Part shown: positions 1,135-62,114 of the stretch, one piece after another
How positions within the stretch are numbered: position 1 is the stretch's first letter
How the letters are laid out: every line of letters begins with the position of its first letter
IMG/VR virus record: IMGVR_UViG_3300025944_000010
Location: 3,069 to 67,068 of that record
Strand: one strand, 5' to 3'
Source of the DNA: a virus
Lineage: Duplodnaviria > Caudoviricetes
Length of the DNA stretch: 64,000 nucleotides
Notes under the pieces: generated by a model
Databases searched by the model: none
Seen by the model: only the letters and a program-made list of their open reading frames with translations
What the model was told of the DNA's origin: nothing
Program-made: the position numbers and the translations under genes

Positions 1135-1155
1135 AAAGTCTTACGGTAAGACAAT

Positions 1156-1776
1156 GTGGACACTTTCTACACAATCGAGAAACTTGGCAACAAACAGAGG
1201 CTTACGCCTGAAGGGTTTCTGCTTTGCGAAGATGTCCCGATTGCGCGAACGGGTACGCAGCTTTATTTGGCGCGAGAAGTTCCTGAGATTGAAGCCGATA
1301 GTCAAGGCCATGTCACAATGGAGCGCGACGAAGAAGATGTATTCAGGCCAGAAACAATTGCAAGCGTCAACGGAAAGTGCATTACCGTTGACCATCCTAA
1401 TGATCTAGTAAGGCCGCATAGCTGGAGAGATTTAGCGGTAGGAGTGGCATTAAACGCAAGACGCGGAAGCAATGGAGATAAAGATTTATTACGCGCTGAT
1501 TTGTTGATTACGGATTTTGAAGCTATCGAGCAAGTAAGACAGCGTACCGAAGATGCAAAGCGCGGACTAGGGACGGGGCAGGAAATAAGTGCAGGGTACA
1601 ACTACAACGGGGTACAGATTGCAAAAGGCAGGGGCAAACAGACCGATATATGGATTAACCATATAGCCCTAGTTGACGCGGCGAGATGTGGAAGTAGATG
1701 CAGTATCGGTGACGCGGTAGTGGTAGAAAAAAAGAGAACGTCAAAAATTGTAAGAGTGTTTATACATAGGAGCTGA
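1156..1776 (+). CDS. DUF2213 head maturation protease-like protein
   Basis: RLTPEGFLLCEDVPIARTG, TVDHP and NHIALVD..RCG.RCSIGD motifs; first gene of head module. Confidence 0.88.
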   Translation: MDTFYTIEKLGNKQRLTPEGFLLCEDVPIARTGTQLYLAREVPEIEADSQGHVTMERDEEDVFRPETIASVNGKCITVDHPNDLVRPHSWRDLAVGVALNARRGSNGDKDLLRADLLITDFEAIEQVRQRTEDAKRGLGTGQEISAGYNYNGVQIAKGRGKQTDIWINHIALVDAARCGSRCSIGDAVVVEKKRTSKIVRVFIHRS

Positions 1777-1777
1777 A

Positions 1778-2608
1778 ATGAAACTCTGGGAAAAACTCAA
1801 AGCGGCCTACAACGGAAAAGACTGCAAGACTTTTGATGAGGCCATTGCCGAGTTGAAGGCTAAGGATGAGGACTCAGAGGGTGGGACTGCGGTACATGTC
1901 CACACAAACGAAGGCCGTTCGGCTTATGATGATGACACCTTAAAAGGTTTGTTTGAGAAAAACGAAACCGAGCATAAGGCGATGGATGAGCGCATGGCCG
2001 CGTGTGAAGGCATGATGAAAACGGCCAATGATGCCAAGGCCAAAGACGAAGAGGAAAAGAAAAAGAAAGAAGAAGAGCAGAAGGCCAAGGACGCGGAGAA
2101 AGAAAAAGAAGAAAAGGAAATTAAGGATGCATTGGCCGATGAAGCTCCGGCAGGGGAAGAAGAAAAAGCCAAGACAGCGAAGGACAGCAGTTATTTAGTC
2201 GAAAGTTTCCAGACTACAAAATCAAAGGCGGAAATCATTGCTCCGGGAATCCATCTGCCAGCGTTTGATAAGGCGGCAGACCCAAAGGTTACGTTTAATT
2301 CCATCTGTGGATTGAGGCGTAAAGCAATCCAGTCGGCAGCGCGTGATGCTGATTCACTGGCAATGATTCTGAAACTCAGCGGCGGCAAAGCATTCGATTC
2401 GGCCAAGATGGATGGAATGTCTTGCGGTCGGATTAAAGTTTTGTTCGATTCATTGGCAGAAATGAAACGCTTGGCCAACAATGCAGCGGCCAACAAGGAA
2501 AAGCCGGACATGGCTGCATTGTTGCAAACCGATGGTCAGCCGATGAGCAATGAGAAATTTAAATCGGTGCGAGAAGAAGCGCGTAAGAAGCGCGGTCAGC
2601 ACGTATAA
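1778..2608 (+). CDS. Capsid scaffold-like protein
   Basis: Charged coiled-coil rich in KD/EEK; lies between protease and decoration genes. Confidence 0.7.
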   Translation: MKLWEKLKAAYNGKDCKTFDEAIAELKAKDEDSEGGTAVHVHTNEGRSAYDDDTLKGLFEKNETEHKAMDERMAACEGMMKTANDAKAKDEEEKKKKEEEQKAKDAEKEKEEKEIKDALADEAPAGEEEKAKTAKDSSYLVESFQTTKSKAEIIAPGIHLPAFDKAADPKVTFNSICGLRRKAIQSAARDADSLAMILKLSGGKAFDSAKMDGMSCGRIKVLFDSLAEMKRLANNAAANKEKPDMAALLQTDGQPMSNEKFKSVREEARKKRGQHV

Positions 2609-2644
2609 AAGTTTTGAAATAGAAATTTTTCAGGAGGCAACACA

Positions 2645-3181
2645 ATGGGCGCAGCGTTTACATTCAGAGCGGGAGCGGGATTTCCCGGCAACGTAACTCG
2701 CCAAGAGAACAGCATTATTGAACCTGCTCTCATTGATGCCGCAGCACCGCCATTGCTTTATGGTGTGCCAGTGGTGATTGATCCGACTACGCAAGGCGTG
2801 AGACCGTTGGTAGCTGGCGATAGTGGATTGACGAATTTTTATGGAATTTTGGTTCGCGCATTCCCGACATCGCAAGCGTCAACTACAAATTTTGGAAATA
2901 CTCCACTCGGCACTAACCCAGCTCCTCCTACCAGCGGCCCCTGTGATGTATTAGTAAGTGGATATATCAATGTACAGGTTCCTATAGGATCGGCATTGGC
3001 CTTGAAGAACGGCGCGGTATTTGTGTGGGTAGCTGCGACATCAGGAGTTCATATTCAGGGTGGATTTGAAACGGCTGCAAATGGCGGTAACACTATTGCC
3101 ATCGGCGGTGCAGGCGTAACAACGCATTACAACGGTGGCCAAGACGCGAACGGGATCATCGAGTTAGTGTTTAACATTTAA
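2645..3181 (+). CDS. Capsid decoration/cement protein
   Basis: AFTFRAGAGFPGNVTR N-terminus; directly upstream of capsid gene as in Bcep781-like phages. Confidence 0.75.
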   Translation: MGAAFTFRAGAGFPGNVTRQENSIIEPALIDAAAPPLLYGVPVVIDPTTQGVRPLVAGDSGLTNFYGILVRAFPTSQASTTNFGNTPLGTNPAPPTSGPCDVLVSGYINVQVPIGSALALKNGAVFVWVAATSGVHIQGGFETAANGGNTIAIGGAGVTTHYNGGQDANGIIELVFNI

Positions 3182-3256
3182 GTTTCGGAACAAAGTTTAT
3201 TTCCGACAGGGAGTGGCCTGAAAACATGGCCACACCTAATTTTAGGAGGAAGCGCA

Positions 3257-4318
3257 ATGTTGACTTTCGATCAGAGGGCGTTCGATGCCACAGGTATCCC
3301 AATGGGCAAGAAACTTGGGGGAACCTACACTAAAGACGGAAAGTCTTACGATTCCACAGGCGCATTCCTCGAGAATGAACTATCGCGCATCGACCCCAAG
3401 ATGCACATGCCGCTTGCCGATATTCAGTATGATCGGGATATCGACATTCGCAGCGACGTAACGATGGCCGATGAATTTTCCAGTTTCACGGTATCGACAT
3501 TCGGCGGCACAGGTGGACTCGGTACGGGAAACTCAATCGGCAACGGTAAGCACTGGATTGGTCAGAACTCCACGGCCATCAGTGGGGTGTCGGTAGATAT
3601 CGGATTGATTACGCATCCACTGCGCAAGTGGGCCATTGAATCCGCGTATGACATATGGGACATCGAGCAGAGTGCGAAGCTTGGCCGTCCGATTGACCAG
3701 CAGAAATTCTATGCGCTTCAGAGAATGCACGAAATGGAAGCAGATGAGCAGGCTTACATTGGTGACATTCCAAACGGTGACGCTGGATTGCTTACGCAAC
3801 CTTCAACCGTGGTAGTGCCTCAGAACGTAGCGATAGGAGGGGCAGGAAGCACGTCATGGGCGCTGAAAACTCCGGCAGAAATTCTTGCCGATGTAAACAC
3901 GGCAGTAACGGCGGTATGGACTGCCAGCGCGTATGCGGTGATGCCGGAAAGAATTTTGCTGCCACCAGCGCAATACGGGGCAATCAGTACTGCTTTGATT
4001 TCTTCTGCTGGACAGGGATCAGTGTTGAAGTACCTGAAACAGAATTCAGTAGTGATGGCGAAGGAAGGAAAAGAGTTGGACATTCAGCCTGTGAAGTGGC
4101 TGGCAGGAGCGGGTGTAGGTGGAACAATCGGTACGCCGGGAATAGATCGCATGGTGGTCTATACCAAGCGTGAAGAGTACATTCGTTTCCCCTATGTACC
4201 GATGGCGCGTACCCCGGTAGAGTTCCGTGGCATCTATCACATCACTACTTACTACGGCAAAATGGGAGTGGTGGAGGTTGTATATCCACAAACCGTAGGA
4301 TATTTCGACGGAATCTAG
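3257..4318 (+). CDS. Major capsid protein (DUF2184 family)
   Basis: 353 aa; GAFLENEL.RID, KTPAEILADVN, DRMVVY, YYGKMGVVEVVYP; strong SD AGGAGG. Confidence 0.9.
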   Translation: MLTFDQRAFDATGIPMGKKLGGTYTKDGKSYDSTGAFLENELSRIDPKMHMPLADIQYDRDIDIRSDVTMADEFSSFTVSTFGGTGGLGTGNSIGNGKHWIGQNSTAISGVSVDIGLITHPLRKWAIESAYDIWDIEQSAKLGRPIDQQKFYALQRMHEMEADEQAYIGDIPNGDAGLLTQPSTVVVPQNVAIGGAGSTSWALKTPAEILADVNTAVTAVWTASAYAVMPERILLPPAQYGAISTALISSAGQGSVLKYLKQNSVVMAKEGKELDIQPVKWLAGAGVGGTIGTPGIDRMVVYTKREEYIRFPYVPMARTPVEFRGIYHITTYYGKMGVVEVVYPQTVGYFDGI

Positions 4319-4378
4319 TTAATAAAGTAATTAGCAGAAAGTCTTACCGTAAGACAATTTTTAGGGAGAGAAAAAGTT

Positions 4379-5315: not shown

Positions 5316-5332
5316 GTTAGAATGATAACCCA

Positions 5333-5825: not shown

Positions 5826-6467
5826 ATGTGTCCACTACTCAATCCCGGCGCAGTAGTTTTAAGCAGCCCAATGCTGCTTGATACCTTCAGTGTAATGCGC
5901 AGGATTGAAACGGTAAACAGTTCCGGAGAATCGGTGCTTTCGGTTTCCGCTACAACTGGAATCTATGGAGTAGTTAAGCCCATAGGTGACAGACTAGATC
6001 GTAGAGCGGATGAAGATTCCAGCAAGAAAGATTTGCGAGTGTTTACCAAGTTTGCGCTGAGAGGATCGACAAGGGATGGAGTACCCACAGATTACAAACC
6101 TGACCTTGTGTACTGGCATGGGAACAACTTCCTTGTAGTTGATGTTAGGGATTGGGGAGCATACGGAGTAGGATACGTAGTAGCAGAATGTAACTTATTT
6201 GAGCTGGTATCGGCTCCTCCTCAAGTAAATTCAGGGTTAGGAAATTCTGGAACCCTGCTGCCGTTCGGGGGACTCGTGACGGCCTATCAACCTACAATCA
6301 TTTCCAGCAATCAGGCGACAATACCTATTACGATTCTGGCACAGAACGGGATTCTGTTTAAGAATGGAATCCAACTGCAAGCGCCTAGCCAGTTCACGAT
6401 ATCAGGGCAGACTATAACTTTTGTGGATCTATTAGTACCGGGGGACGCGCTCACATTCTACGCATGA
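5826..6467 (+). CDS. Head-closure protein with C-terminal extension
   Basis: N-terminal ~130 aa resembles a head-closure protein (PDLVYWHGNNFLV..V.DWGAYG.GY); ~80 aa extra C-terminal domain. Confidence 0.7.
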   Translation: MCPLLNPGAVVLSSPMLLDTFSVMRRIETVNSSGESVLSVSATTGIYGVVKPIGDRLDRRADEDSSKKDLRVFTKFALRGSTRDGVPTDYKPDLVYWHGNNFLVVDVRDWGAYGVGYVVAECNLFELVSAPPQVNSGLGNSGTLLPFGGLVTAYQPTIISSNQATIPITILAQNGILFKNGIQLQAPSQFTISGQTITFVDLLVPGDALTFYA

Positions 6468-9400
6468 AAAAATTCCTAAAAAGTCTCACGGTCATACTTT
6501 TTTATGCTCTGGCAATAGGGCAAAACCTTCCCAATATTTCCACCCAAACCAAAGGGCAACTGCCAATCAATAGGTTGAATGCGCCGGGGGTAGCAGGGTT
6601 ATGCTTACAGACAGATGGATTGGGAAATGTTGCGGTACAAAGTTGCTCGGGAACAATATCGGGAACAGTAACAAATTTCAGCGCAAACAATCTGTCTCCG
6701 TTATTTGTGACTTCTGTATTTAATCCGACTACTACGCCAGCCTTAAGTTTCTCGCTATCAAGCTTTGCGCCACACACATTTTTTGGTAATAATACTTCGG
6801 TAACGGCGATTCCGGGCGCACAATCCATAGGAATCGCTGACCTTCCGGGGTCAGGGGCCGTCACCATTAATACCTCATTTCCTATTGGTGGGGGTGGCTC
6901 TTTGGCTCTTGGGGGAAGTTTGAGTTTGACGTGCGCAAGTTGCGTTACTAATATCCCGCAATTGCCGATAACAAAAACTGCTGTAGCTTCAAGTTGGATC
7001 AATTCCTACGATTCAACTACAGGATTATTTACTGCTACACGTCCAGCATATACAGACTTGACAGGATTACCGCAGCTTGCGGTGACAAAAGCGGCAGCTT
7101 CATCTAATTGGCTGCGTAGCTATGATTCAACCACTGGATTATTTGTAGCTAGTCAACCTGCTTACTCTGATATTTCTGGGACTCCGCAGCTTGCGATTAC
7201 CAAAACATCCATATCGTCAAACTGGATTAATTCTTACAACTCTGCAACTGGATTATTTACGGCAACGCAACCTGCAACCGCAGACTTGAGCGACTTTCCA
7301 TCTCAAGCTACAAACTCAGGTAAATTCCTGACTACTAATGGAACGGTATTGAGTTGGGGGTCGCCATCGGGTGCAGGTACGGTAACCAGTTTTAGTAGTG
7401 GAAATTTATCGCCACTATTTACAACTTCAGTAGCAACCGCGAACACAACGCCAGCACAGACTTTTGCGTTATCTACAGCGGCTGCGCATCTGTTCTTTGG
7501 AAACAATACGGCAATTACCGCTGCTCCTGCTTATGAAGCAATTGGGAATAGTGACCTTCCCGGCTCTGGTGGGGTAACTTTAAATACGACTTCACCAATC
7601 ACGGGAGGCGGATTAGTAACTCTGGGGAATGCTCTTACGTTAGCGTGTCCATCGTGCTTGACTTCGGTAACTGCTCATAATCTTCTAAGCGCAACGCATG
7701 GCGATACCACAACACATGCAGTCTTACGGGGAGACTTAATTGCAGGAATCGGCGTAGCACCGACTTGGACAGCAGTAGCCAAAGGTGGAACGAATACCTA
7801 TCCAAAATGGAATGCAAGCGGGGATGTAGTAGCGTCAACTTTGGCAGCGTCGGGGGTAGGTTCGCCAACTACTTGCACGAATCAGGCTGTGACTGCGTTC
7901 ACTCTAAATGCCGATGCTGCGCCTACGTCAACCTGTACGACTATCACGAATGCATTTACGACAGGAACATTTCCAGCTACAGCACATAATTTATTGAGTT
8001 CTACTCATGGTGATACGACACCGGGAAGCGTAGTAACTGGCGATGTAATCAGCGGCCAATCGAGCGCATGGGCAAGGCTGGCGGGAAATAGTACGACAAC
8101 GCCGCAATATCTGAAGTCACTTGGAAGCGGAGCGGCGGCAACTGCCCCAAGTTGGGCGCAAGTGGCCTACACCGATCTATCGGGGGTACCTAGTACATTC
8201 GCGCCAACTGCACATAACATCCTGTCAACTGCTCATGGTGATACCACGGCAGCAGCAGCGGTAAGGGGTGATGGATTTTTTGCCATAGGTGTAACCCCTA
8301 CTTGGCAGAGGTTAGCGCATCCGGCAACTACAGGCGGATATTTTAAATGGAATGGTACGGACATAGTAGCTTCATCTCTGGCGGCAAGTGGAACGGGAAA
8401 TTGTGGAGCCAATAATTTTGAAACGGGGAGCAATGCTGACGCTGCCCCTACATGTGCGCAACCTGCGTTTACTAATCTTTCAGGTTCGGTAGCTGCTGCA
8501 CAGATGCCAGCATTGACCGGGGACATTACAAGTACGGCAGGAACGGTATCTACTACTCTGGCAACTGTAGCTACACCGGGAACCAATACGAAAGTTACAT
8601 TCAATGCCAAGGGTCTAGTTACTTCAGGGGCATCGGCTGTATTGGCATCGGCAGACTTCGTAAATCAGGGTACGACTACAACGCTGCTGCATGGAAATGC
8701 GGCTGGCAATCCATCGTTTGCTGGAGTCAATTTAATAAACGACGCTTCGGCCAATCAGGGAACAGTAAATCAGTTGTTACATGGGAATGCAGCGGGTCAG
8801 CCATCATTCAGCGCAGTGGCCAGCGCGGATTTAAATTTAACCACGACTGCATGTACAAACCAATTTGTATCTGCAATTTCTTCAGGTGGAGTGGGAACAT
8901 GTACTACGGATACTCTGGCATCGGCGCAACATGCGAATCAAGGTACGGTAAATACCGTGTTGCATGGGAACGCTGCGGGAAATCCCGCATTTAGTGCGGT
9001 AACGTCTGCTGACACTACAGGGACGTTTCCAGCCACGGCACACAACTTACTATCGGCAACGCATGGCGACAGCACCACGGGCACTGTAGCGCGAGGGGAC
9101 ATCATTACAGGGCAAGGCGCAAGTCCCACATGGACGCGACTAGCGAAGGGAGCAGCTAATCAATTACTCTCTATGGATGCTACGGGAACCGATATTATAT
9201 GGGCAGCGCCTTCGGGTGGAACGGGTACGGTAACATCTTTTAGTTCTGGTAATCTATCGCCAATTTTCACAACTTCTGTAGCCACGGCAACGACAACTCC
9301 TGCTCAAACATTTTCACTATCCACGGCAGGAGCGCATACATTTTTAGGGAATAACACTGGAGCTACAGCAGCACCCGCCTATGTACAACCTGCATTCACG

Positions 9401-11341
9401 GATATTTCTGGCGTAGGGTCTTGTGCTCAAGAGCCTGCACTAACAGGAGATGTAACATCCAGTGGGTGTGCGGCCACGATAGCCAGTAATGCTGTAACGC
9501 AATCCAAGGTTACAGGTGGCTATGTCGATCTAACGAACGCCCAGAATCCGATTGCAGGAAATAAAACATTTTCCGGCAATGTGTCGGCACTATCATTCCA
9601 ATTCACACGCCGGATGGTGGATCAGGAGGCAGGTGCGGACTTCGGCGCAAAGCTGAATAACTGCATTGTCAATATCACGAATGGACTCAACGGAGCTTTT
9701 GGTGGCATTTGCGATGCGTCAAACCTGCAAGGATTTCAAGCAGCAGCGGCGACGATCACCGTTAACCACGATCTTGTAACAATATTGCTGCCTTGCAACG
9801 TAGTTTTGACGCTTGCCGGTTCCCCCGGTCTAAGTTGGACAAATACCAATGGTGCCATGCTTGGATGCTCTCAACAAAACACCATTATTACAACCTCATC
9901 CGCAACCGCAGACGTGATTTCCCTAAGCTCGCTAGCGACCAAAAATCATTTCTCAGATTTTACGGTTCAATCGGCAGTAACTAGAACTGCCGGTAGCGGT
10001 ATCAGAGTGTCAGGTGGGGATAATGATTTTGAGCGTATTGCTGTATTGCCAACATGGAATGGGGTAAGTCTCGATACTGCCACTAGCTCGGGAGGCAACA
10101 TCTTTCGTTCCGTGCGATTTGGCGGCGGCGGATCTGGTGGTGCGTGGAACTGCCAGACCAAGACCGGAGGCGTGGCAACTGGAAACGTAGCTTCAAACTC
10201 ATTTGTCCAAGGCGTTTGGGATAGCAATGGCGGAGCATCTGTAGCAGACGCTCTAATATGCATTCAAGACGGTACAGACTCGTTAGACATCATCGGAGGT
10301 CAAGCCGTAGCGAACTTGGGCGGGGGAACAGACGCTATTCCAGTTCACTTCGAATTGGTTAATGCTGGCAATGCCCCATCCAACATTCGCATTACTGGCC
10401 TCACAATGGAAGGAGGCGTAACTAAGCCTGCTATGAAGATAGATTCCGTCTTTGGAATGGAATGCACCGCTTGCACTTTTCAGTCCAGCTTGCAAGGTTT
10501 ACTGGCTAACTCTGGAACGCGTATTAAAATCAACGGTGGCCTGTTCTTCAATAACCAGCAAGAGGGTGTTCGTGACAACAATACAGCGGTTACCGATCTC
10601 CAAATACTCGGAGCAAGGTTCTGCAATAATGGACTAGGCACTACTAATACCTTTAGCGATTTCTTTGCGGTAGCTGCGGCCACCGGATTTTTTGTACAAA
10701 ATAACCGATTCCTTGCTTGTCAAGCGGGTGGCAATGCACCAAAAAACAACGTCGAGATCGCGTCAGGAGCAAGTACAAACTATCAAGTAACAAACAATGG
10801 GTTTGCCAATGCTACAGGAGCACCTATCTTAGATGGTGGTACAGGAACAGACAAGGTAATCTGCGGAAACACTCCAGATGCTACTGGCGTAAATTCATTC
10901 TGTAATGTACGCAAAATATATCTCACGGGTAACTATACAAATGCAACCACATCCCTGACTAACGTATCATCTGGTAATACTCTGGCTTTTGCGGTAGGAG
11001 CAAACAAAGATTATGCGCTAACCTGCGAGTTGTTCTATCAGGCTGCATCTACTGGTGGATTGCAAATAGGATTTACTGGCCCTGCTTCGCCTACAGCTAT
11101 AAACTATTCTGTGATGATGGCCACAAATGTAACAGCATCAAATTATGGATCAACTACAGCATTTGGTAATAAGATTCCGGCCACTGGAGTAGCAGTAGGG
11201 GCGGCGACAACAAACTTTCCTGCTCATATTGCTCTCATGTTACGTAATGGAGCTAACGCTGGAACAGTTACACTGCAAGCGGCAAGCGTTGCGTCAGCAA
11301 CTTTGACTATTAACAACACATCGTTTTGCACGATACAGTAA
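6464..11341 (+). CDS. 1625-aa repeat-rich fibre/spike-like protein with signal peptide and beta-helix-like C-terminal region
   Basis: MKKFLKSLTVILFYALAIG|Q; several internal repeat families; C-terminal third has right-handed beta-helix-like Gly/Asn/Ile periodicity. Confidence 0.75.
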   Translation: MKKFLKSLTVILFYALAIGQNLPNISTQTKGQLPINRLNAPGVAGLCLQTDGLGNVAVQSCSGTISGTVTNFSANNLSPLFVTSVFNPTTTPALSFSLSSFAPHTFFGNNTSVTAIPGAQSIGIADLPGSGAVTINTSFPIGGGGSLALGGSLSLTCASCVTNIPQLPITKTAVASSWINSYDSTTGLFTATRPAYTDLTGLPQLAVTKAAASSNWLRSYDSTTGLFVASQPAYSDISGTPQLAITKTSISSNWINSYNSATGLFTATQPATADLSDFPSQATNSGKFLTTNGTVLSWGSPSGAGTVTSFSSGNLSPLFTTSVATANTTPAQTFALSTAAAHLFFGNNTAITAAPAYEAIGNSDLPGSGGVTLNTTSPITGGGLVTLGNALTLACPSCLTSVTAHNLLSATHGDTTTHAVLRGDLIAGIGVAPTWTAVAKGGTNTYPKWNASGDVVASTLAASGVGSPTTCTNQAVTAFTLNADAAPTSTCTTITNAFTTGTFPATAHNLLSSTHGDTTPGSVVTGDVISGQSSAWARLAGNSTTTPQYLKSLGSGAAATAPSWAQVAYTDLSGVPSTFAPTAHNILSTAHGDTTAAAAVRGDGFFAIGVTPTWQRLAHPATTGGYFKWNGTDIVASSLAASGTGNCGANNFETGSNADAAPTCAQPAFTNLSGSVAAAQMPALTGDITSTAGTVSTTLATVATPGTNTKVTFNAKGLVTSGASAVLASADFVNQGTTTTLLHGNAAGNPSFAGVNLINDASANQGTVNQLLHGNAAGQPSFSAVASADLNLTTTACTNQFVSAISSGGVGTCTTDTLASAQHANQGTVNTVLHGNAAGNPAFSAVTSADTTGTFPATAHNLLSATHGDSTTGTVARGDIITGQGASPTWTRLAKGAANQLLSMDATGTDIIWAAPSGGTGTVTSFSSGNLSPIFTTSVATATTTPAQTFSLSTAGAHTFLGNNTGATAAPAYVQPAFTDISGVGSCAQEPALTGDVTSSGCAATIASNAVTQSKVTGGYVDLTNAQNPIAGNKTFSGNVSALSFQFTRRMVDQEAGADFGAKLNNCIVNITNGLNGAFGGICDASNLQGFQAAAATITVNHDLVTILLPCNVVLTLAGSPGLSWTNTNGAMLGCSQQNTIITTSSATADVISLSSLATKNHFSDFTVQSAVTRTAGSGIRVSGGDNDFERIAVLPTWNGVSLDTATSSGGNIFRSVRFGGGGSGGAWNCQTKTGGVATGNVASNSFVQGVWDSNGGASVADALICIQDGTDSLDIIGGQAVANLGGGTDAIPVHFELVNAGNAPSNIRITGLTMEGGVTKPAMKIDSVFGMECTACTFQSSLQGLLANSGTRIKINGGLFFNNQQEGVRDNNTAVTDLQILGARFCNNGLGTTNTFSDFFAVAAATGFFVQNNRFLACQAGGNAPKNNVEIASGASTNYQVTNNGFANATGAPILDGGTGTDKVICGNTPDATGVNSFCNVRKIYLTGNYTNATTSLTNVSSGNTLAFAVGANKDYALTCELFYQAASTGGLQIGFTGPASPTAINYSVMMATNVTASNYGSTTAFGNKIPATGVAVGAATTNFPAHIALMLRNGANAGTVTLQAASVASATLTINNTSFCTIQ

Positions 11342-11362
11342 TAGTCTCGCGGTAAGACTTTT

Positions 11363-12034: not shown

Positions 12035-12366
12035 ACAAGGCGAAGTTAAATAAATTCGCGTACATACTACTTCGAGAGCGTCTTACGTTTGGCGATATGG
12101 AAGCAATACTAAACGAAGTAGAATCACCCGATGAGCCTGACATGGTGCCAGCGGTAGCAGGGTACATTGAAGAGATCGTAAGTCGCATTACTGCATCTGG
12201 CCTGAAATGCGCAGAGAATATGTGCAATACTGAGTTTGAAGATGTGAGAATGGTAAGGAACACTGTTGTTTTGGGTAGTGCTGGAATAAACCAAAGATTG
12301 GAATTTGTAGAAGTTCCGATGTGCGCCGATTGCCGTAGAAGAAATCCTGAGGCAGTCTTACTGTAA
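12022..12366 (+). CDS. Hypothetical insert with CxxC motifs
   Basis: Interrupts terminator-sheath synteny; its stop TAA lies inside the palindrome at 12355. Confidence 0.6.
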   Translation: MGAMNKAKLNKFAYILLRERLTFGDMEAILNEVESPDEPDMVPAVAGYIEEIVSRITASGLKCAENMCNTEFEDVRMVRNTVVLGSAGINQRLEFVEVPMCADCRRRNPEAVLL

Positions 12367-12384
12367 GACTAGGAGACAAGAAAA

Positions 12385-40846: not shown

Positions 40847-40867
40847 AAAGTCTTACGGTGAGACAAA

Positions 40868-48509: not shown

Positions 48510-49721
48510 ATGGCCGTTAAGCGATACCACGATACAAACGTGCTAGAAGCTGCAAGGGAAAGAATCGGCCTAGCTCTGGACAATACGGAACGATCCTATA
48601 TTGCCCTGAGTGGCGGCAAGGATTCAACTGTTCTACTCCATTTGGTAATGGAGCAAGCGATTAAGCGCGGTAAAAAAGTTGCGGTAATGTTTATTGACTT
48701 TGAAGCGCAGTATCAGGAAACAATCCGACACCTACAAGAATTGTTTGAAATGTACGAGGATCACATCGAAGCGCACTGGATTTGTATTCCCATGCTACTT
48801 CGTAATGCTGTAACAAACTATGAGCCTCGCTGGATATGCTGGGACAGGAACAAAGAGGATATCTGGATAAGGCAAAAACCGTATTACTGTAAGACTGAAA
48901 AAGATTACCCATTTGCTCTGGCGGAAATGGAATTTGAGGAATTTATTGTCCTGTTTGGAGAGTGGTACAGCCAAGGTAAAAAGACGGCGGCATTCATCGG
49001 CATACGGGCGCAAGAGAGTCTACATCGCTACTGTGCAATAGCCACATGGGAGAAAAGAAATCTCACGCTTAATGGATGGCGATGGACTACTAAAATTGTG
49101 GACGAAGTTTACAACGTATATCCAATTTACGATTGGTTAACCGAAGACATCTGGCGATACCATGCGATGTATTCAGACAAGCCACATAATCGAATCTATG
49201 ACCGTATGCAGATGGCCGGAGTGCCATTAAGCAATCAGAGGCTATGTCAGCCATTCGGAGACGATCAAAGGCGCGGACTGTGGCTGTATCACATCTTGGA
49301 ACCTGAAACATGGTTCAAGTTGGTAGCGCGAGTTAATGGAGCAAACTCAGGCGCATTGTATGTACAGGACAAGGGAAACATAACGGGGTACGACAAGATT
49401 ACAAAGCCGCCTAATCACACATGGCGTAGTTTCTGTAATCTCTTGTTACGAACGATGCCAAAAAAGACGCGAGAGCATTACTTGATTCGCTTCAAGAAAT
49501 TCATCAAGGGATGGCGAGATCGAGGTTATATTCAGATACCGGATGAGGCTCCGCCAGAGTTAGAGGCTAAATGCTGGGCACCGTCATGGCGAAGGATGTG
49601 CAAGGTGTTGCTGCGCAACGATCATTGGTGCCATGGTTTAGGACAGGCACAGCCGAAGTCCGCTGCTTACAAAAAATGGTTAGAAATAAAAAAACAGAGA
49701 AAACTGGCGCTAAAGGGCTAG
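48510..49721 (+). CDS. ibrA: IbrA-like PAPS-reductase-family protein (DUF3440)
   Basis: SGGKDS PP-loop, GIRA.ESL.R, YPIYDW.TEDIW, QRLCQPFG, PSWRR.CK..L.ND.WC. Confidence 0.85.
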   Translation: MAVKRYHDTNVLEAARERIGLALDNTERSYIALSGGKDSTVLLHLVMEQAIKRGKKVAVMFIDFEAQYQETIRHLQELFEMYEDHIEAHWICIPMLLRNAVTNYEPRWICWDRNKEDIWIRQKPYYCKTEKDYPFALAEMEFEEFIVLFGEWYSQGKKTAAFIGIRAQESLHRYCAIATWEKRNLTLNGWRWTTKIVDEVYNVYPIYDWLTEDIWRYHAMYSDKPHNRIYDRMQMAGVPLSNQRLCQPFGDDQRRGLWLYHILEPETWFKLVARVNGANSGALYVQDKGNITGYDKITKPPNHTWRSFCNLLLRTMPKKTREHYLIRFKKFIKGWRDRGYIQIPDEAPPELEAKCWAPSWRRMCKVLLRNDHWCHGLGQAQPKSAAYKKWLEIKKQRKLALKG

Positions 49722-49724
49722 TAA

Positions 49725-49958
49725 GTGAAACCTGAAACCATCAAACTAAAAGCGCACATCGCAAAAATTGTAGAACCTTTAAGGTTGCGCTGTGAGTTTA
49801 TTTTGCGCAATGGGGACAGGGCTGGTAAAAAATGTGGGAAGCGCGCAAAGAAAACCAGCATCAAAGGTATAGGAAATATGAAATCAAGTCTCTGCTGGAG
49901 ACACAGAAAGTTATTGCAAAGAGAATATATTGCCGATATAGTTCCTGAAGAGAGTTAG
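49725..49958 (+). CDS. Small basic Cys/His protein
   Basis: C.......G..C......LCWRH. Confidence 0.55.
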   Translation: MKPETIKLKAHIAKIVEPLRLRCEFILRNGDRAGKKCGKRAKKTSIKGIGNMKSSLCWRHRKLLQREYIADIVPEES

Positions 49959-49962
49959 CAAA

Positions 49963-50451
49963 ATGACTAGCCCACTCATAGCGATTGACAGCATTTCATT
50001 CACGGCGTTCTGCACTCCAGAGCCACAGGGGTCAATGAAGGCTTTCATCCCAAAGGGCTGGAGTCGCGCAATCGTTACCAGCGACAATAAGGATTTGAAA
50101 TCATATCGTCAGGAAGTGGCCAAAGCTTCCTTGGTGGAAAGAAATAAAATTGGTTTCAATGATGTTCTATTCGCCAAGCACTCGCCAGTGGCCATATTGC
50201 TTAAATTCTTTTTCTTGAAACCTGAATCAGTATCCAGAAAAAGAACACAGCATGTAGTTAGGCCCGACCTGTCGAAGCTCATTAGGGCCACCGAAGACGC
50301 GCTAACAGGGATCATTTACACGGATGACGCGCAGATAGTTTCAATCAAGGCGGAAAAGTTTTATGGATTGCCGGAGAGGGTAGAGGTTACGGTAAGCGGG
50401 AAGGTTTCAGAAATTCCGCAATCTCTATTTATTGCTCAAGATGATTTCTAA
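49963..50451 (+). CDS. rusA: RusA-like Holliday junction resolvase
   Basis: P.PQGS, RPDLSKLIRA.EDALTGI.Y.DDAQIV....EK.Y. Confidence 0.85.
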   Translation: MTSPLIAIDSISFTAFCTPEPQGSMKAFIPKGWSRAIVTSDNKDLKSYRQEVAKASLVERNKIGFNDVLFAKHSPVAILLKFFFLKPESVSRKRTQHVVRPDLSKLIRATEDALTGIIYTDDAQIVSIKAEKFYGLPERVEVTVSGKVSEIPQSLFIAQDDF

Positions 50452-50653
50452 AACATACAGCACGGAAGAAATTCAAAGGCTAGCGATGTCAGATGATCTA
50501 TTCATGCCTGAATCCATCTCGCTTGAGCCTGAAGGAAAAAGTCTTACCGTAAGACTGCCCGATAAATTCAAGCACTTAAATAAAAAATCATTGATAACCA
50601 TTCCGGCATTCAATGAAGATTTAGAGTACGAAAAAGAATTTCTACTGCTATAA
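50432..50653 (+). CDS. Hypothetical protein
   Basis: Contains perfect palindrome 50541 in frame (KSLTVRL). Confidence 0.45.
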   Translation: MLKMISKTYSTEEIQRLAMSDDLFMPESISLEPEGKSLTVRLPDKFKHLNKKSLITIPAFNEDLEYEKEFLLL

Positions 50654-50680: not shown

Positions 50681-51172
50681 ATGAGAAATAAATCAAAGTA
50701 TCTGGCAAGTGTTATAGCAATCGTTTTGCTTGTGGGATGCGCGAAGCTTCATCGCACCTCGAATGCTGATGGAACTCCTACAGCTCCGATAACTTCACTT
50801 GAAAAAGTCAATGCCGACAATGCGCAAATTTCAGTTCACAATCATGCGGTAGCGGAGTCGCTGGTAGCGATTCACCAGAACGGGATGATCGAAAATGAGT
50901 ACTTCGATAAACTCTCTGCTGGACAAATCAAGATCACGCGTATCCATGAACAGCTGACTCCTCTATTGGCGCAACCTGTAGCTGCCAATGCGGCCCAAAT
51001 CAAGGGACTCCTGAAAGAGATTAACGACATCGGAACGCAGATGGTAGCGGATGGAACGGCAGGGGTAAAAGACCCGACATCCCAGAAAGCAATTACCAGC
51101 GAAGTTCAATCAATCATCACGCTTGCCAATTCTATTCTGTCCACTCTTTCGACTACTGGAGTGTTGAAATGA
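50681..51172 (+). CDS. Putative lipoprotein
   Basis: MRNKSKYLASVIAIVLLVG|C lipobox; helical body. Confidence 0.75.
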   Translation: MRNKSKYLASVIAIVLLVGCAKLHRTSNADGTPTAPITSLEKVNADNAQISVHNHAVAESLVAIHQNGMIENEYFDKLSAGQIKITRIHEQLTPLLAQPVAANAAQIKGLLKEINDIGTQMVADGTAGVKDPTSQKAITSEVQSIITLANSILSTLSTTGVLK

Positions 51173-51375
51173 GCGAAGTAAATTTCGCTCAAGGATATGA
51201 AGTAGGCAACCAGAACATTCGCATTACCTACGAAAATCTCAACCCCATGGAACCAGAATCAAGATTTCCAATGATATACAAAATGCAAGAAGATGGTTCA
51301 GTGAAAGCGTTAAATCTTACTCCAGATGAAGGGCGTTTTGTAGCTCGCAAATTGAGTGAAATGTTTCACAAGTAA
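51169..51375 (+). CDS. Hypothetical protein
   Basis: ATGA overlap with the previous gene. Confidence 0.55.
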   Translation: MSEVNFAQGYEVGNQNIRITYENLNPMEPESRFPMIYKMQEDGSVKALNLTPDEGRFVARKLSEMFHK

Positions 51376-51404
51376 AATCTGAAAAAATCAGCAAGGAGAA
51401 TTTT

Positions 51405-51632
51405 ATGGCAGCATCTTTATCCGGCGATACCGCATTGAAACTGGCCGCACTCATCGCGGCACTCACGGCGATTGGAGTGGAAGACCTTAACGCGATTCGT
51501 TCCATTGACACGCTTGGCCCTGTAGTGGCTGACAACGTGGCAAGCCTACAGGCTACGGCAAAACAGTTTGACGATGCCACGATTCAGGTTCTCAATTCGG
51601 AGCGCGTGGCGGCAGGACTTCCGGCGCTATAA
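51405..51632 (+). CDS. Small helical protein
   Basis: SD AGGAG. Confidence 0.65.
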   Translation: MAASLSGDTALKLAALIAALTAIGVEDLNAIRSIDTLGPVVADNVASLQATAKQFDDATIQVLNSERVAAGLPAL

Positions 51633-52042
51633 TGCACTCTCTTTACCTTATTGCCACAATAAGCTTAAGTGGTGTGACTGCTGGCAAGGTAGCTGGAATA
51701 ATTGCCAGCGTGTATACCATTCTGCAAGTGGTTAAGAAAACATTCCCCGTTGTAACTGGCCGCTGGGCATTGGCGATAAATATCGGCTTGTCGATTGGGG
51801 CAGTGGCAATAGTCTTACCGCCAGACAAAATGTTTTCCATGGAATCATTCACTGCTTTGGCGATTGCCGGGATATCGGCAATGGGAAGCGCGGGAATCCA
51901 CGGAACGGTACAGAACGTGGCTCCTGCGGCATTGCAGAACGTATTGGGTCAAGGAAATAGCGCGGACGCGCCACAAGGCGATTCTGCGATAGTACAGGCT
52001 ATCCCAGCGCAAGGCAAGACTTCCAAATACAATCCAGATTGA
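51632..52042 (+). CDS. Holin-like multi-TM protein
   Basis: Three hydrophobic segments and a polar C-terminal tail. Confidence 0.55.
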   Translation: MHSLYLIATISLSGVTAGKVAGIIASVYTILQVVKKTFPVVTGRWALAINIGLSIGAVAIVLPPDKMFSMESFTALAIAGISAMGSAGIHGTVQNVAPAALQNVLGQGNSADAPQGDSAIVQAIPAQGKTSKYNPD

Positions 52043-52551: not shown

Positions 52552-52580
52552 TTGACAAGGTTAACAAAATAACTTAAAGT
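52552..52580 (+). promoter_or_regulatory. sigma70 promoter with embedded operator
   Basis: TTGACA-17-TAAAGT; GTTAACAAAATAAC at 52560-52573. Confidence 0.8.
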
Positions 52581-53774: not shown

Positions 53775-53954
53775 ATACGCAGGACAGGGAAGCGAGTTGC
53801 GGGATACTTATTGGCCTAACTATAGCAGCGTCAGCTTTCACAGTAGGATTTATCGTTTACTGGATTGTGAGATTGGGGACGTAAAAATGAAACTAAGTTT
53901 CACCGTAATACTATTTGTTTGCCGTAGTTTGATAACCAAGCTAGAATATTATCC

Positions 53955-54242
53955 ATGGCAAACAAGATAGCAGCGGTGACGAAAACAAAGCGCTCCCCCG
54001 GACGACCGAAGGAATCCTTTGTAGACAATTCGGCAAAGGCCAAGGCGTTTGGATTCAAGTTGAAGCGGTTCAGGGCGGCGAACGGGTTAACTCAGGAGAA
54101 GATGGGAAAACTCATGCGAATCAATGGGGACGCTATACCTAGCAAGATTGTAATAGCGCGATGGGAAGCTGGGAAACATGCTCCACAAAGAAGATATGTT
54201 GAGAAGCTGGACAAGCTGGTTACGGATTACTTTAAACCATAG
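53955..54242 (+). CDS. XRE-family HTH transcriptional regulator
   Basis: LKRFR..NGLTQEKMG.LM......IARWEAG...P. Confidence 0.82.
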   Translation: MANKIAAVTKTKRSPGRPKESFVDNSAKAKAFGFKLKRFRAANGLTQEKMGKLMRINGDAIPSKIVIARWEAGKHAPQRRYVEKLDKLVTDYFKP

Positions 54243-54560: not shown

Positions 54561-55065
54561 CAGCACGATCAGGAGAAAGCCATGCAATGCGATAACTGCG
54601 GAAAAGAAGTCATCGTTAACGAATTTGGAAACATTAAGCCCGATGGAGTCTGGCCAAACGCATACGGATTCATATTCTGCGGGTTTGATCCAACACAGAA
54701 AGACATTTCACAGGAAACCTGTCAAGAAATATTTGAACGCAAACTTTGGGAAAAAGCTCAAGCCGATAAACAGGCAGAGCACAAAACAGAAAGCGCGGCT
54801 CCAGAAGCTAGCGGCGATCAGGCTGAAATGGTGGAACGAGGCACAGTCTCGCGGTAAGACTTTAATCTGCGGGATATGCGACGAACCGATATGGACGTTT
54901 GAGGATTTAGCAAGCGATCACATAATTCCCGGCAACCCTAGAGACGATTCGGAAAGCAATTTACAACCTGCGAATCAATTGTGCAATTTGCTAAAAGGGA
55001 GCCAAAGGAATTTTAAGATAGTACGAGGGGATCGTAACTGGAAACTTATTCATGGGATGTTATGA
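54430..55065 (+). CDS. HNH endonuclease-like protein (true start uncertain, likely downstream)
   Basis: CGIC...DHIIP......NLQPANQLCN.LKG. Confidence 0.7.
   Translation: MIFAGNVGSRETTAGDMKSKKPLRKISEKRRKEIASNGLRLGYNSTIRRKPCNAITAEKKSSLTNLETLSPMESGQTHTDSYSAGLIQHRKTFHRKPVKKYLNANFGKKLKPINRQSTKQKARLQKLAAIRLKWWNEAQSRGKTLICGICDEPIWTFEDLASDHIIPGNPRDDSESNLQPANQLCNLLKGSQRNFKIVRGDRNWKLIHGML
54582..54857 (+). CDS. Hypothetical protein
   Basis: SD AGGAG; CDNC; overlaps the HNH frame. Confidence 0.5.
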   Translation: MQCDNCGKEVIVNEFGNIKPDGVWPNAYGFIFCGFDPTQKDISQETCQEIFERKLWEKAQADKQAEHKTESAAPEASGDQAEMVERGTVSR

Positions 55066-56152: not shown

Positions 56153-56284
56153 AAACGGAAGATGGACATATTGCGGAGAACGATGCCGCGAAATATACGA
56201 ATCACGATAGTCTTACCGTAAGACTTGAGTTAACGAAACAATCAAGCTATCATTGGAAACGTCAAAAATAAAATCGGAAACGCC

Positions 56285-58093: not shown

Positions 58094-58112
58094 TTGTGTT
58101 AATATGATAACT

Positions 58113-58427
58113 ATGGACAAAACAACTCAAGAGGTATTCCGCGAAAGAGCATTACTGTCAGCCGATCTAGCTGCAAAACTTTACGATGCCGAACCAAGCG
58201 ATAGGCTAGAAATGCTTCCAATACTCAGCTCTGCTGAATTGGAACAATTAGAGCACTTGGGCAAGGGTGCCGTTTGGGATGGATATTTGATTTCAAAGAA
58301 CGCCAGAACAAGCCTATGTCTAATTGGGCTAGCGTCAAGATGGAACGGAATGAATTTTATTACTCAGGCTGGAATGGCTGTACTTGATACCCTGAAGAGC
58401 ATTGTAATTAGAGAAAAATCAAAATGA
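58113..58427 (+). CDS. Hypothetical insert between terL and portal
   Basis: GAVWDG.LISK..R..L...GLA motif. Confidence 0.6.
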   Translation: MDKTTQEVFRERALLSADLAAKLYDAEPSDRLEMLPILSSAELEQLEHLGKGAVWDGYLISKNARTSLCLIGLASRWNGMNFITQAGMAVLDTLKSIVIREKSK

Positions 58428-58744
58428 GTCAAGCTAAGGGTTACACATACTTCGGAGCAGAGCGTAAGCCAATCGCAATCAAAAAGTCTCCCCGTAAGAC
58501 TTTTACCGAAAGATTGCGCGAGATCGTGGCTGAAGTAATGGGAGTGGATACGGAAGAAGTCACCGATTCCTACCAGATCAAACACGAAACCGAATTGATG
58601 CCCAATGGCCTATTTGAATTGATTGAGTTATCGGTAGCGATTGAAAACGAATGGGGACTTGGGGAAGTGTTTACATCGGAAAATGAGGATGTGTTTGAAA
58701 GTTTTGGGACGCTGCTGGAGTTCGTGAAAGAAAAAGTAAAGTGA
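58424..58744 (+). CDS. Acyl-carrier-protein-like protein lacking the DSL serine
   Basis: ERLREIVAEVMGVD.EEV.....ELIELSVAIENEWGL......FESFG.LLEFV mirrors AcpP; NGL in place of DSL. Confidence 0.65.
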   Translation: MSQAKGYTYFGAERKPIAIKKSPRKTFTERLREIVAEVMGVDTEEVTDSYQIKHETELMPNGLFELIELSVAIENEWGLGEVFTSENEDVFESFGTLLEFVKEKVK

Positions 58745-59463: not shown

Positions 59464-59524
59464 AACATTCCTAGGCAATCCATCGCCATTACTGTAAAGT
59501 AGAAAAGTCTCACGGTAAGACTAA

Positions 59525-60943: not shown

Positions 60944-60982
60944 AAGTCTCACAGTCATACAAAATAGGTTATAATGATAACC

Positions 60983-61129
60983 ATGAAACTTAAACCCCCC
61001 AAAAATAAAAACGATTATGATTGGATAAGTTGGTTGATAGATAGATTCAGTTGGACTTTTCCTGTTTCCATATTGATAGCGGTAGCTATTGGAATATTTC
61101 TAGGGATGTTAGTTACAGGGAAAATTTAA
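60983..61129 (+). CDS. Small membrane protein
   Basis: SILIAVAIGIFLGMLV TM segment; operator GTTATAATGATAAC just upstream. Confidence 0.45.
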   Translation: MKLKPPKNKNDYDWISWLIDRFSWTFPVSILIAVAIGIFLGMLVTGKI

Positions 61130-61324
61130 ATGAAATCAATCTCCATCACTTACGACGAAACAACCGCTAACTTAAACCTTTCCAGCCAAGGATTAACTGA
61201 AGCTGAAGTGCTGGTATTTTTAATGGAAGCACAGCAGAAGGTTAAGGACTGTGTTGTGGAAGCGTTAAAGAAAAAATCCAGTGGGATCATAACGCCGCAT
61301 TTGATGCGACCGCCAATAGCGTAA
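61130..61324 (+). CDS. Hypothetical protein
   Basis: ORF track. Confidence 0.55.
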   Translation: MKSISITYDETTANLNLSSQGLTEAEVLVFLMEAQQKVKDCVVEALKKKSSGIITPHLMRPPIA

Positions 61325-61337
61325 AGGCATTACCTAA

Positions 61338-62093
61338 ATGCCTCTCACTCCAGCACAAATACGTAACGCAACCCGCCAGAGATTCAATCGTGCACGTATC
61401 GCACAAATCAGTTATGAACGACAGTTAGCCCAAGTAGGACGCCACACAGGGCACATCATCAAAGGAATGGCACCAGAGGGCGTTATAAGCGATCTAGGGG
61501 CTATACAGCGCATCCTCACACAGTATTCGGACATCTTGCAGCCATGGGCCAAGTCGATAGTTGAAAGAATGACGGCTGAAGTCTCGCAGAGAGACATTCG
61601 CGCATGGGCTGAATTGGGAAGATCAATCGGGCAATCACTCAAAAAAGAAATACTAAACGCTCCGACTGGAATCGCTTTACGTGAGCAGATGCAGGAGCAG
61701 ATAAAAAGTATTACCAGTTTGCCGTTGGAAGCCGCGCAGAGATTGAACGAATTAACTTTACGTGGAATCACAGAGGGAACGCGAACGCCTGAGATTGTGG
61801 AAGCAATATTAAATTCAGGCAATGTAAGTATCAGCCGAGCAAAAATGATTGCGCGAACACAGGTTGCGACAACGGCGAGTAAGTTGACGGAAGTCAGGGC
61901 AGTGCATATTGGGAGTCCGGGTTATCTGTGGCGGACATCGCAAGATTCGGACGTAAGATTATTCCATCGAAAACTTGAAGGAAAATTTATCGAATGGGGC
62001 AACCCTCCGATTGTCGATAAAAATGGACGTAGAGCACATGCAGGGCAGGACTTTCAGTGTCGCTGCTACCAAGAAGTGATCGTTCCCGATTAG
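61338..62093 (+). CDS. Head morphogenesis protein (Mu F-like)
   Basis: RA..IARTQV, YLWRTS.D..VR..H..LEG....W..PP, HAG..FQCRC. Confidence 0.92.
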   Translation: MPLTPAQIRNATRQRFNRARIAQISYERQLAQVGRHTGHIIKGMAPEGVISDLGAIQRILTQYSDILQPWAKSIVERMTAEVSQRDIRAWAELGRSIGQSLKKEILNAPTGIALREQMQEQIKSITSLPLEAAQRLNELTLRGITEGTRTPEIVEAILNSGNVSISRAKMIARTQVATTASKLTEVRAVHIGSPGYLWRTSQDSDVRLFHRKLEGKFIEWGNPPIVDKNGRRAHAGQDFQCRCYQEVIVPD

Positions 62094-62114
62094 TCTTACT
62101 GCAAGACTTTTATA

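Follow-up and report, generated by a model that had tools for sequence, protein, structure and literature searches.

We analysed a 64-kb stretch of phage DNA (hereafter the window), bases 3069-67068 of the 67,068-bp IMG/VR virus record IMGVR_UViG_3300025944_000010, in which copies of a short palindrome, GTCTTACNGTAAGAC, run through head, tail, replication, lysis and packaging genes alike. The phage is myovirus-like, with 46% G+C, and the open reading frame (ORF) map of the window places all credible genes on the plus strand. The virion and packaging genes recognised encode a major head protein, a tail sheath, baseplate hub and wedge proteins, a lytic tape-measure-like protein, a portal, a large terminase and a Mu-F-like head protein. 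Those for replication and DNA metabolism encode a lambda-O-like initiator, a DnaB-type helicase, thymidylate synthase, RusA, a NUDIX protein and an HNH nuclease. Further genes code for DUF932, two PAPS-reductase-like proteins, two ParB-like proteins and a single XRE protein of 95 amino acids (aa). PHROG- and Pfam-type searches recognised no RNA polymerase, DNA polymerase, primase or integrase among the genes scanned. Nor did these genes include other lysogeny genes, a partition pair or a divergent repressor, one of which might still be hidden among the unmatched ORFs.

Eleven exact matches to GTCTTACNGTAAGAC were observed in the window and none in 100 dinucleotide-preserving shuffles. Allowing up to three mismatches gave 37 matches, against a mean of 1.37 and a maximum of 7 in the shuffles. 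The array is thus far above chance by the shuffled control proposed in a first-pass annotation of this DNA, and all of the 34 starts listed there were recovered, together with a weak site at 7721. Two matches are new (53897 and 25465, both with three mismatches). That at 25465 is probably a chance match, since it has no A at position -1 and is located in conserved coding sequence. Those at 7721 and 48881 are doubtful because both are intragenic and lack the run of A described below. In total, 36 credible copies of AAAWA-GTCTYRC-N-GYRAGAC-W were counted, and none lies in the part of the genome beyond the window (3,068 bases). As a literature query, the motif returned primer matches only.

Relatives were collected by scanning IMG/VR for the motif including its A-run. 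This yielded two genomes rated 100% complete, G001 (64.9 kb) and G002 (66.6 kb), with 29 and 28 sites respectively at two mismatches or fewer. They are circular permutations of one gene order, with 73-79% nucleotide identity over slightly more than half of the genome. The XRE protein led to a further pair of near-complete contigs (62.4 and 66.5 kb) and to several fragments, and in every family member found, that is five near-complete genomes and several fragments, the motif has a density of 0.35-0.67 per kb. For 25 of the 37 window matches at least one relative carries a site at the aligned position, often with different substitutions and a different central base, and the sites for the most part occupy corresponding gene junctions. 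In alignments anchored at the site, core positions are 97-100% alike between genomes and the flanks and central base about 45%; the core figure is inflated by selection of sites by match, and the contrast with centre and flanks is still clear. Sites that stay in place with a constant core and drifting centre and flanks indicate that the lattice is an ancestral, selected trait of the family.

Searches for remoter relatives via the capsid protein or the XRE protein returned only members of the same family, and no nucleotide match was found between the phage genome and cultured phages. The nearest cultured phage, Edwardsiella phage vB_EpM_ZHS, has only virion proteins in common with it, at about 50% identity (sheath 53%, portal 47%). 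Its replication module differs, and it carries no such palindrome array.

The anatomy of the motif was drawn from an alignment of 90 sites in three genomes. The element exceeds the 15-mer and is oriented: a 17-bp dyad, A-GTCTYRC-N-GYRAGAC-T, with an A-run on its upstream side. Position -1 is A in 88 of the 90 sites, and position +15 is T (61) or A (29), never G or C. The A-run occupies positions -5 to -2, while the 3′ flank is A/T-rich without being T-specific. No variation is seen at G0, T1, T3, C6, G8, A11 and A13, and only a single exception each at C2 and C14. Changes, mainly transitions, are tolerated at positions 4, 5, 9, 10 and 12, and any base may stand at the centre; the pattern conserved is AGTCT..C.G..AGACT. 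The arms differ in what they tolerate: among 106 sites, T4 is replaced by C in 45 and the mirror change, A10 to G, is found in 18, a 2.5-fold difference. Similarly, G12 is changed to T in 18 sites, and the mirror change is found in few.

Covariation of the kind left by RNA pairing is lacking. Among the 106 sites, compensatory C4-G10 pairs were observed twice, against 7.6 expected under independence, and G5-C9 pairs once, against 2.8 expected; pair 4-10 is mismatched on the sense strand in 52. The calculated folding energy is -5.6 kcal/mol for a perfect copy, -3.5 for the commonest variant and 0, that is no fold, for the GTCATAC variant. Although unable to fold, the GTCATAC class is recurrent and kept at syntenic places; the variant at 36050, for example, recurs at the syntenic place in G001 (G001 1188). 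No Rfam family matches the element. It also lacks the make-up of an intrinsic terminator, having only two or three G-C pairs in the stem, a stability of at most 5.6 kcal/mol and a T-run on the antisense strand only. Canonical G+C-rich terminators occur separately, one of them directly 3′ of the site at 32917. The absence of compensation together with the conserved non-folding variants favours a double-stranded site for a dimeric protein. The first-pass annotation had suggested as much and had named conservation in relatives as a check; the pair counts, the weak hairpin and the conservation, all read from sequence, support it on both points.

Placement and spacing of the sites

About 62% of the sites lie between ORFs or on ORF edges, in genomes that are about 86% coding, and most of the 'intragenic' ones are a few codons from the start or end of an ORF. 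Of 106 sites in three genomes, 48 (45%) have the upstream ORF's stop codon within the motif or in its 5′ flank, against about 3% for a random position. The link with stop codons noticed in the first pass is thereby borne out. The stop codon is located in the A-run (TAAAAAGTC...), at position -2 (TAG) or in the right arm (GTAAGAC), and the next start codon follows 3 nt to more than 100 nt downstream of the site. A sigma-70-like promoter is present within 70 nt downstream of 3-6 of the approximately 35 sites per genome (about 15%), a count made with a consensus from which that of the host may differ.

All window sites are given on the plus strand. Two of them carry TAAAAA in the 5′ flank and are syntenic in both G001 and G002: 1138-1152 (exact), where TAAAAA lies just 5′ so that the stop is in the flank, and 6483-6497 (three mismatches, with a GTCATAC right arm). 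Others follow a stop codon at a short distance: 16450-16464 (exact) by 1 nt, 11344-11358 (two mismatches) by 2 nt, and 14355-14369 (exact) and 23723-23737 (two mismatches, GTCATAC) by 3 nt. The distance is again 3 nt at 19482-19496 (one mismatch), whose centre is at about -33 of a TAAAAT-GATAACC-ATG promoter, at 40850-40864 (one mismatch), which is also 3 nt ahead of an ATG, and at 41051-41065 (one mismatch), with TTGACA 2 nt downstream. It is 4 nt at 25734-25748 (two mismatches), at 27610-27624 (one mismatch; ATG 18 nt downstream) and at 36050-36064 (two mismatches, GTCATAC). The site at 60946-60960 (three mismatches) lies 2 nt past the portal stop, its left arm at the would-be -35 of a TATAAT promoter, and that at 47304-47318 (two mismatches) 11 nt past a stop. 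At 12355-12369 (exact) the site's own TAA terminates the upstream ORF, the sheath gene beginning 15 nt downstream. The sites at 25040-25054 (two mismatches; ATG 3 nt downstream), 29885-29899 (one mismatch; TAG), 39153-39167 (one mismatch) and 62093-62107 (one mismatch) also overlap a stop codon, the last being the final site before a site-free accessory region.

Several exact copies lie at other gene boundaries. That at 4341-4355 is between the major head gene and the next gene, whose ATG (4379) is 23 nt on, and is syntenic in both relatives. The copy at 32917-32931 has a separate G+C-rich hairpin with a T-run directly 3′, that at 33874-33888 is intergenic, and that at 42976-42990 is at the end of a small ORF, 18 nt upstream of the thymidylate synthase gene. 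The site at 45619-45633 is in the leader of a conserved gene for a 344-aa protein, downstream of its promoter, and is exact in four of the five genomes; that at 56210-56224 is ahead of the presumed small terminase gene. With mismatches, a site is intergenic at 19832-19846 (two), in the last codons of an ORF at 37359-37373 (two), in a gene overlap before or in the DnaB gene at 43998-44012 (two), and 3 nt upstream of the portal ATG at 59507-59521 (one).

Sites inside ORFs comprise an exact copy in a 55-codon ORF (50541-50555), syntenic in both relatives, and copies with two mismatches in a membrane-protein ORF (51812-51826, followed by AAA-ATG), in the HNH gene (54846-54860, not kept in relatives) and in a 106-codon ORF (58486-58500). 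The doubtful site at 7721-7735 (two mismatches), inside a 1625-aa ORF and without an A-tract, recurs unchanged in relatives, as do its coding flanks, so that coding constraint may account for its conservation. The other doubtful one (48881-48895, one mismatch), inside the IbrA-like gene, has no A-tract and no counterpart in relatives.

The sites are also evenly spaced. The coefficient of variation of the spacing is 0.57, 0.45 and 0.71 in three genomes, against about 0.96 for random positions or random gene ends (P <= 0.0003, < 0.0004 and 0.03-0.05; the control includes random gene ends). The widest gaps coincide with accessory DNA that is missing from the relatives. Since the genes are laid out on a single strand, the orientation of the sites relative to transcription is inseparable from that relative to replication.

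Three accessory islands absent from the relatives were delimited. The first (33889-36049) carries a ParB-like gene between the sites at 33874 and 36050, and the second (47319-50540) the IbrB/IbrA-like pair, with the site at 47304 at its left edge. The third spans the ends of the record (62108-64000 plus genome bases 1-4205). The islands have zero or nearly zero lattice sites, which, with their absence from the relatives, suggests recently acquired DNA.

Candidate reader proteins

The best single candidate for a protein that reads the sites, and a possible one in our view, is the 95-aa XRE-family protein (53955-54242, plus strand; HTH_31 30.7 bits). It is present in all family members and is the sole HTH_3-type match in each of three genomes that were profile-searched. 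Among 5.8 billion proteins it has 16 homologues, all at least 74% identical and all within this phage family. Its N-terminal arm, which is disordered, contains the invariant stretch KR..GRPKESF, and its helix-turn-helix (HTH) a second one, PSKIVIARWEAGKHAPQ; one family member has the canonical RGRP of an AT-hook. The AlphaFold2 (AF2) model, with a predicted local distance difference test (pLDDT) score of 78, consists of a Cro/C1-type core and the disordered arm, and its fold matches C-proteins, ClgR and P22 c2. A promoter, TTGCCG-17-TAGAAT, was read upstream of the gene and also came from a promoter scan (53919-53947, plus strand); it ends 7 nt before the ATG, a leaderless layout, and is kept in five genomes. 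A lattice site with a weak right half (GTAATAC), also kept in five genomes, lies just 5′ of its -35 (53897-53911).

The nearest solved relative of the XRE protein is C.Csp231I, a weak match (E 0.014, 31-33% identity over about 60 residues). C.Csp231I is a small dimeric HTH controller of a restriction-modification system that reads a 15-bp dyad, CTAAG-N5-CTTAG, with an A-rich centre (PMC4321490). It differs in having two sites at one promoter rather than a genome-wide set, and both the sequence and the arrangement of its half-sites are different. The 17-bp dyad with its free centre is in the same size range, which supports the XRE protein as reader, as do the pairing of an invariant DNA-reading region with an invariant motif and the weak, conserved site copy at its own promoter. 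An XRE dimer would then read the two outer AGTCT blocks of the dyad, and the invariant, AT-hook-like KR..GRPK arm could lie in the A/T-rich flank.

Several points weigh against this assignment. Every core gene co-occurs with the motif in this one family, so that co-occurrence cannot single out the XRE protein, and the protein has no remote homologues that would allow co-variation testing. Pfam called no AT-hook in it, so the AT-hook label comes from our reading of the alignment. The dyad at the XRE promoter is centred at about -51, a poor position for repression, and the one-sided A-run is unlike what a symmetric dimer with two arms would predict. Moreover, a second palindrome, GTTA-N6-TAAC, could be at least as natural an XRE operator as the 17-bp dyad: its layout is the one expected for the operator of a small XRE/Cro protein, so the XRE protein may serve those sites and something else the lattice.

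GTTA-N6-TAAC has 5-7 exact copies per genome, about 1.3 being expected, and has been kept in both G001 and G002. In the window, exact matches are at 5316-5329, 33518-33531, 52560-52573, 58098-58111 and 60968-60981, and matches with one mismatch at 19507, 31054, 39311 and 62128. Two fixed contexts recur: strong promoters carry the palindrome in their spacer (TTGACA-nn-GTTAWCAAAATAAC-TAnnnT), and start-proximal ones have it over their -10 (GTTAnAATGATAAC-C-ATG). It looks like a classical promoter operator. The 4-N6-4 layout is that of the operators of phage 434. In several genes, including the XRE gene, the -10 hexamer is exactly 7 nt before the ATG (19507-19525, 58098-58116, 60968-60986 and 53942-53957). 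These start-proximal promoters often share a GATAACC spacer and have no Shine-Dalgarno sequence, which suggests a set of leaderless mRNAs.

The alternative candidate is the conserved 344-aa protein (45656-46690, plus strand), which is present in all members and has a Lys/Glu/Ala-rich N-terminal tail. It had no match in Pfam, PHROG or the PDB, and a profile built from 44 sequences likewise gave no link to the PDB or Pfam; a comparison by hhalign with the ParB-like protein of the window was also negative. Its AF2 model is poor, and Atlas matches to named clusters stayed below 0.9. It belongs to an uncharacterised family of 206 remote representative clusters with a histone-tail-like N-terminus and no Pfam model. 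Its gene is usually placed after DnaB and before NUDIX, and these conserved neighbours suggest a replication role. On the contig of its nearest outgroup homologue (L093), a dyad of changed sequence, AGTCCAACGTTGGAC, is found 42 nt before the start, with three copies in 4.1 kb (at 520, 1936 and 3286). By contrast, a phage with another remote homologue (L094) has no palindrome array in 21 kb, and 80 loci carrying the AGTCCAACGTTGGAC array (L097-L176) hold no homologue of the protein.

Arrays of the look-alike dyad AGTCCAACGTTGGAC(T), at 0.5-1.6 copies per kb, occur in over 100 IMG/VR contig stretches of about 40% G+C. Many of these contigs resemble one group of marine-type podovirus-like phages; the contigs have almost no proteins in common with the window phage. 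A reader common to the two groups was rejected, as no proteins are shared.

The first-pass annotation had put forward two candidate binders, the ParB-like and the XRE protein. The XRE protein is retained as a candidate, being in all members and the only HTH_3 match per genome. The ParB-like protein is excluded as the family reader because two complete, lattice-bearing relatives show no ParB domain in a profile search. Similarly, the IbrB-like and IbrA-like gene pair (47202-49721, plus strand; PHROG matches) has no counterpart in G001 and only fragments in G002; missing from relatives that keep the lattice, it was rejected as the common binder. The lambda-O-like initiator is an unlikely reader, as only 21% and 56% of the protein aligns between genomes.

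Function, rival explanations and known arrays

We consider it likely, on the evidence of conservation and base-pair statistics, that the repeats serve, in double-stranded form, as docking sites for a phage-encoded protein with two-fold symmetry and sequence specificity. As the genes run one way and most sites lie directly behind stop codons, punctuation of transcription would be the most plausible function, a proposal that we make tentatively. The bound protein could form a read-through barrier between neighbouring gene blocks, and exert ordinary operator-type control at the few promoter-overlapping sites and in the leader of the 344-aa gene. Taken as a whole, docking sites with the XRE protein as the most likely reader and transcription punctuation as the outcome make up our best explanation, to which we would give slightly less than an even chance. 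The even spacing would suit a chromosome-wide structural role equally well, and the absence of any lysogeny gene among those scanned makes an immunity role in the manner of stoperators unlikely. The main question is whether the sites are transcription barriers or chromosome-organising sites; if barriers, they would be compact, portable insulators for one-directional gene arrays.

The first-pass annotation had called the system undescribed, which was an overstatement. Cluster O mycobacteriophages carry a 17-bp dyad, TGTTCGGNNNCCGAACA, in 34 copies in Corndog (Cresawn et al. 2015, PMC4351075). Its authors predicted a dimeric DNA-binding reader and left the function unexplained, the phages being not obviously temperate (PMC4351075). 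The likeness is close. Both systems have a short perfect dyad with a free centre, in more than 30 copies (11 exact and 36 credible in the window) spread over all modules of a genome of about 70 kb; here the array is conserved over five genomes and fragments. About two thirds of the copies are at or near gene boundaries and one third are intragenic, and most are away from promoters, as the promoter counts above show for the present family. There is no integrase, and a ParB-domain gene is present yet judged irrelevant. The window phage differs in being unrelated, with a myovirus-type virion module, another host and 46% G+C, and in the sequence of the dyad, whose centre is 1 bp against 3 bp in Cluster O. 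It also has an A-run on one side only, sites that all face the same way and are closely tied to stop codons, and a spacing that is measurably even, whereas in Cluster O the orientation of the sites is without meaning (PMC4351075).

The stoperators of Cluster A phages (L5 gp71, Bxb1, TipsytheTRex) are asymmetric sites of 13-14 bp bound by a monomeric two-domain immunity repressor of temperate phages (PMC9283540, PMC6550527). As described there, they resemble the present lattice in number (20-35 copies), in lying on start and stop codons or in narrow gaps between genes, and in constant orientation, which in our family is given by the upstream A-run and the A at -1 in 88 of 90 sites. In the same accounts the bound array is known to block elongation, the function that we propose for the window lattice. 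In the window phage the core is a 7-N-7 dyad rather than asymmetric, the candidate reader is a small protein of Cro/C1 type, and the genes scanned included neither lysogeny genes nor a recognisable temperate-phage immunity repressor. Genome-wide phage dyad arrays have been seen for a decade in Cluster O with reader and function unexplained, and only the asymmetric Cluster A stoperators are understood. The present family offers a clean comparative case, with five diverged genomes, site-by-site synteny, constant orientation, a tie to stop codons and even spacing, and a very short list of candidate readers: the small XRE protein and the conserved 344-aa protein.

The rival that survives best keeps the docking sites and changes their reader and purpose. 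A different conserved protein of the phage, such as the 344-aa one, or a protein from the host would load at the evenly spaced sites so as to organise the chromosome, compact it, replicate it or mark it, the XRE protein serving GTTA-N6-TAAC. We regard this as possible, if rather doubtful. Spacing significantly more even than that of random gene ends agrees with it, as do the majority of sites away from promoters, a feature found also in Cluster O (PMC4351075), and the occupation of core promoters by the GTTA-N6-TAAC dyads. For the 344-aa protein in particular, an exact and best-conserved site lies in the leader of its gene in four of five genomes, and its homologue on L093 again has a dyad (AGTCCAACGTTGGAC) 42 nt upstream. 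Against it, Pfam, PHROG, PDB and hhalign searches recognised no DNA-binding domain in this protein, its DnaB and NUDIX neighbours point to replication, and homologue and array part company both in L094 and at the 80 AGTCCAACGTTGGAC loci.

More speculatively, and with a still lower probability, the dyads might constitute, instead of gene switches, a chromosome-wide loading lattice, a private 'address' giving one phage protein access every 2 kb, perhaps for organising, protecting or processing the chromosome. Arrays of AGTCCAACGTTGGACT are present in more than 100 stretches of unrelated IMG/VR contigs. If a loading lattice were true, lineage-specific arrays would be a general layer of phage genome architecture, of which the Cluster O repeats and the AGTCCAACGTTGGACT arrays would be examples.

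A hairpin acting in single-stranded form is improbable: a weak antisense terminator, an mRNA 3′-end or processing signal recognised by a sequence-specific factor, or a displaced-strand hairpin in rolling-circle replication. In the fold of a perfect copy, a stem of 7 bp closes a loop of 3 nt, and the minus strand reads a hairpin followed by a T-run (TTTTT). The change of T4 to C, 2.5 times as frequent as its mirror, keeps a G-U pair in minus-strand RNA (-5.2 kcal/mol), and with the T-run this is why an antisense or single-strand hairpin is kept as a minor rival. Uniform orientation, the many sites at gene ends and a spacing of about 2 kb, near the length of bacterial Okazaki fragments, would also suit it. 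On the other hand, the energies given above are far under those of usual terminators and fall to zero for the conserved GTCATAC class, compensatory changes are below chance expectation, and the G12-to-T change seen in 18 sites disrupts pairing on either strand. A terminator would need no strict conservation of stem bases over about 100 sites in five genomes; canonical terminators are separate, Rfam gave no match and no primase gene was found among the genes scanned.

Mobility, with the repeats as joints for cassette exchange between related phages or as copies of a small mobile element, is very unlikely. Compared with random positions, ends of homology blocks are found 25 nt or less from a site about six times as often, and the ParB and IbrB/IbrA islands are bounded by sites. 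However, against gene junctions without sites, the enrichment of mosaic joints is weak or nil (odds ratios 0.8-3.2, P 0.04-0.8). The sixfold excess thus largely disappears, and we do not regard the sites as recombination joints or hot spots. BLAST blocks naturally stop at a conserved island within diverged spacers, the repeat is only 20 nt long, no transposase or recombinase was found among the genes scanned, and the sites stay in place across genomes instead of moving.

In a scan of bacterial genomes, the exact 17-mer AGTCTTACWGTAAGACT was enriched only in metagenome-assembled genomes (MAGs) of Latescibacterota, one of which, of 5.5 Mb, has as many as 22 copies. In these MAGs the 17-mer makes up the tip of a longer dispersed repeat (ttag-17mer-tcaacgcaagatgcgtagaagtttgttcatgctgcttgg...) that lies in DNA of 55-60% G+C, at a density below 1 per 250 kb, less than 1/100 of that in the phage. 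This identical tip could be taken to favour mobility, whereas its longer, different context and different G+C argue against it. The bacterial repeat itself looks like the end of an undescribed mobile element; a 543-aa ORF adjoining it had no Pfam match. Loci with the 17-mer include L041, L046, L048, L056, L062-L064, L076, L084 and others, and also one Gemmatimonadota MAG. That the motif is just an abundant host repeat, a possibility raised at the outset, finds little support in so sparse and long a repeat of such G+C; its occurrence in Latescibacterota is treated as a coincidence that neither explains the lattice nor identifies the host.

In the KorB-OB system of the IncP plasmid RK2, as in ParB-parS, odd-centred palindromes dispersed over a 60-kb replicon (12 of them bound by KorB in RK2) act on promoters as well as over a distance; they are read by a CTPase of the ParB family, and no ParB-family protein is common to the window phage family. 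The reading favoured in the first pass, in which a ParB/KorB-like CTP-dependent clamp loads at the palindromes, is close to untenable: its gene (34541-35374, plus strand; ParB_N 30.3 bits, KorB 21.8 bits) does encode a ParB_N domain and a KorB-type HTH, but lies on a 2.2-kb accessory island bounded by sites with no site inside, and has neither a counterpart nor a match to the ParB_N profile (PF02195) in G001 and G002, which keep 29 and 28 sites.

Other features of the genome

A tRNA search of the phage found none. The 1625-aa ORF (6464-11341), which separates the head genes from those for the tail, matched nothing in PHROG or Pfam, and relatives align over only about one fifth of it. The region 50681-52042 is probably a lysis cassette, encoding a 163-aa protein with a lipoprotein-type signal (LLVGC) and two small membrane proteins. 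The site at 51812 lies inside a 136-codon ORF and is followed by AAA-ATG, so the gene call may have merged two genes.

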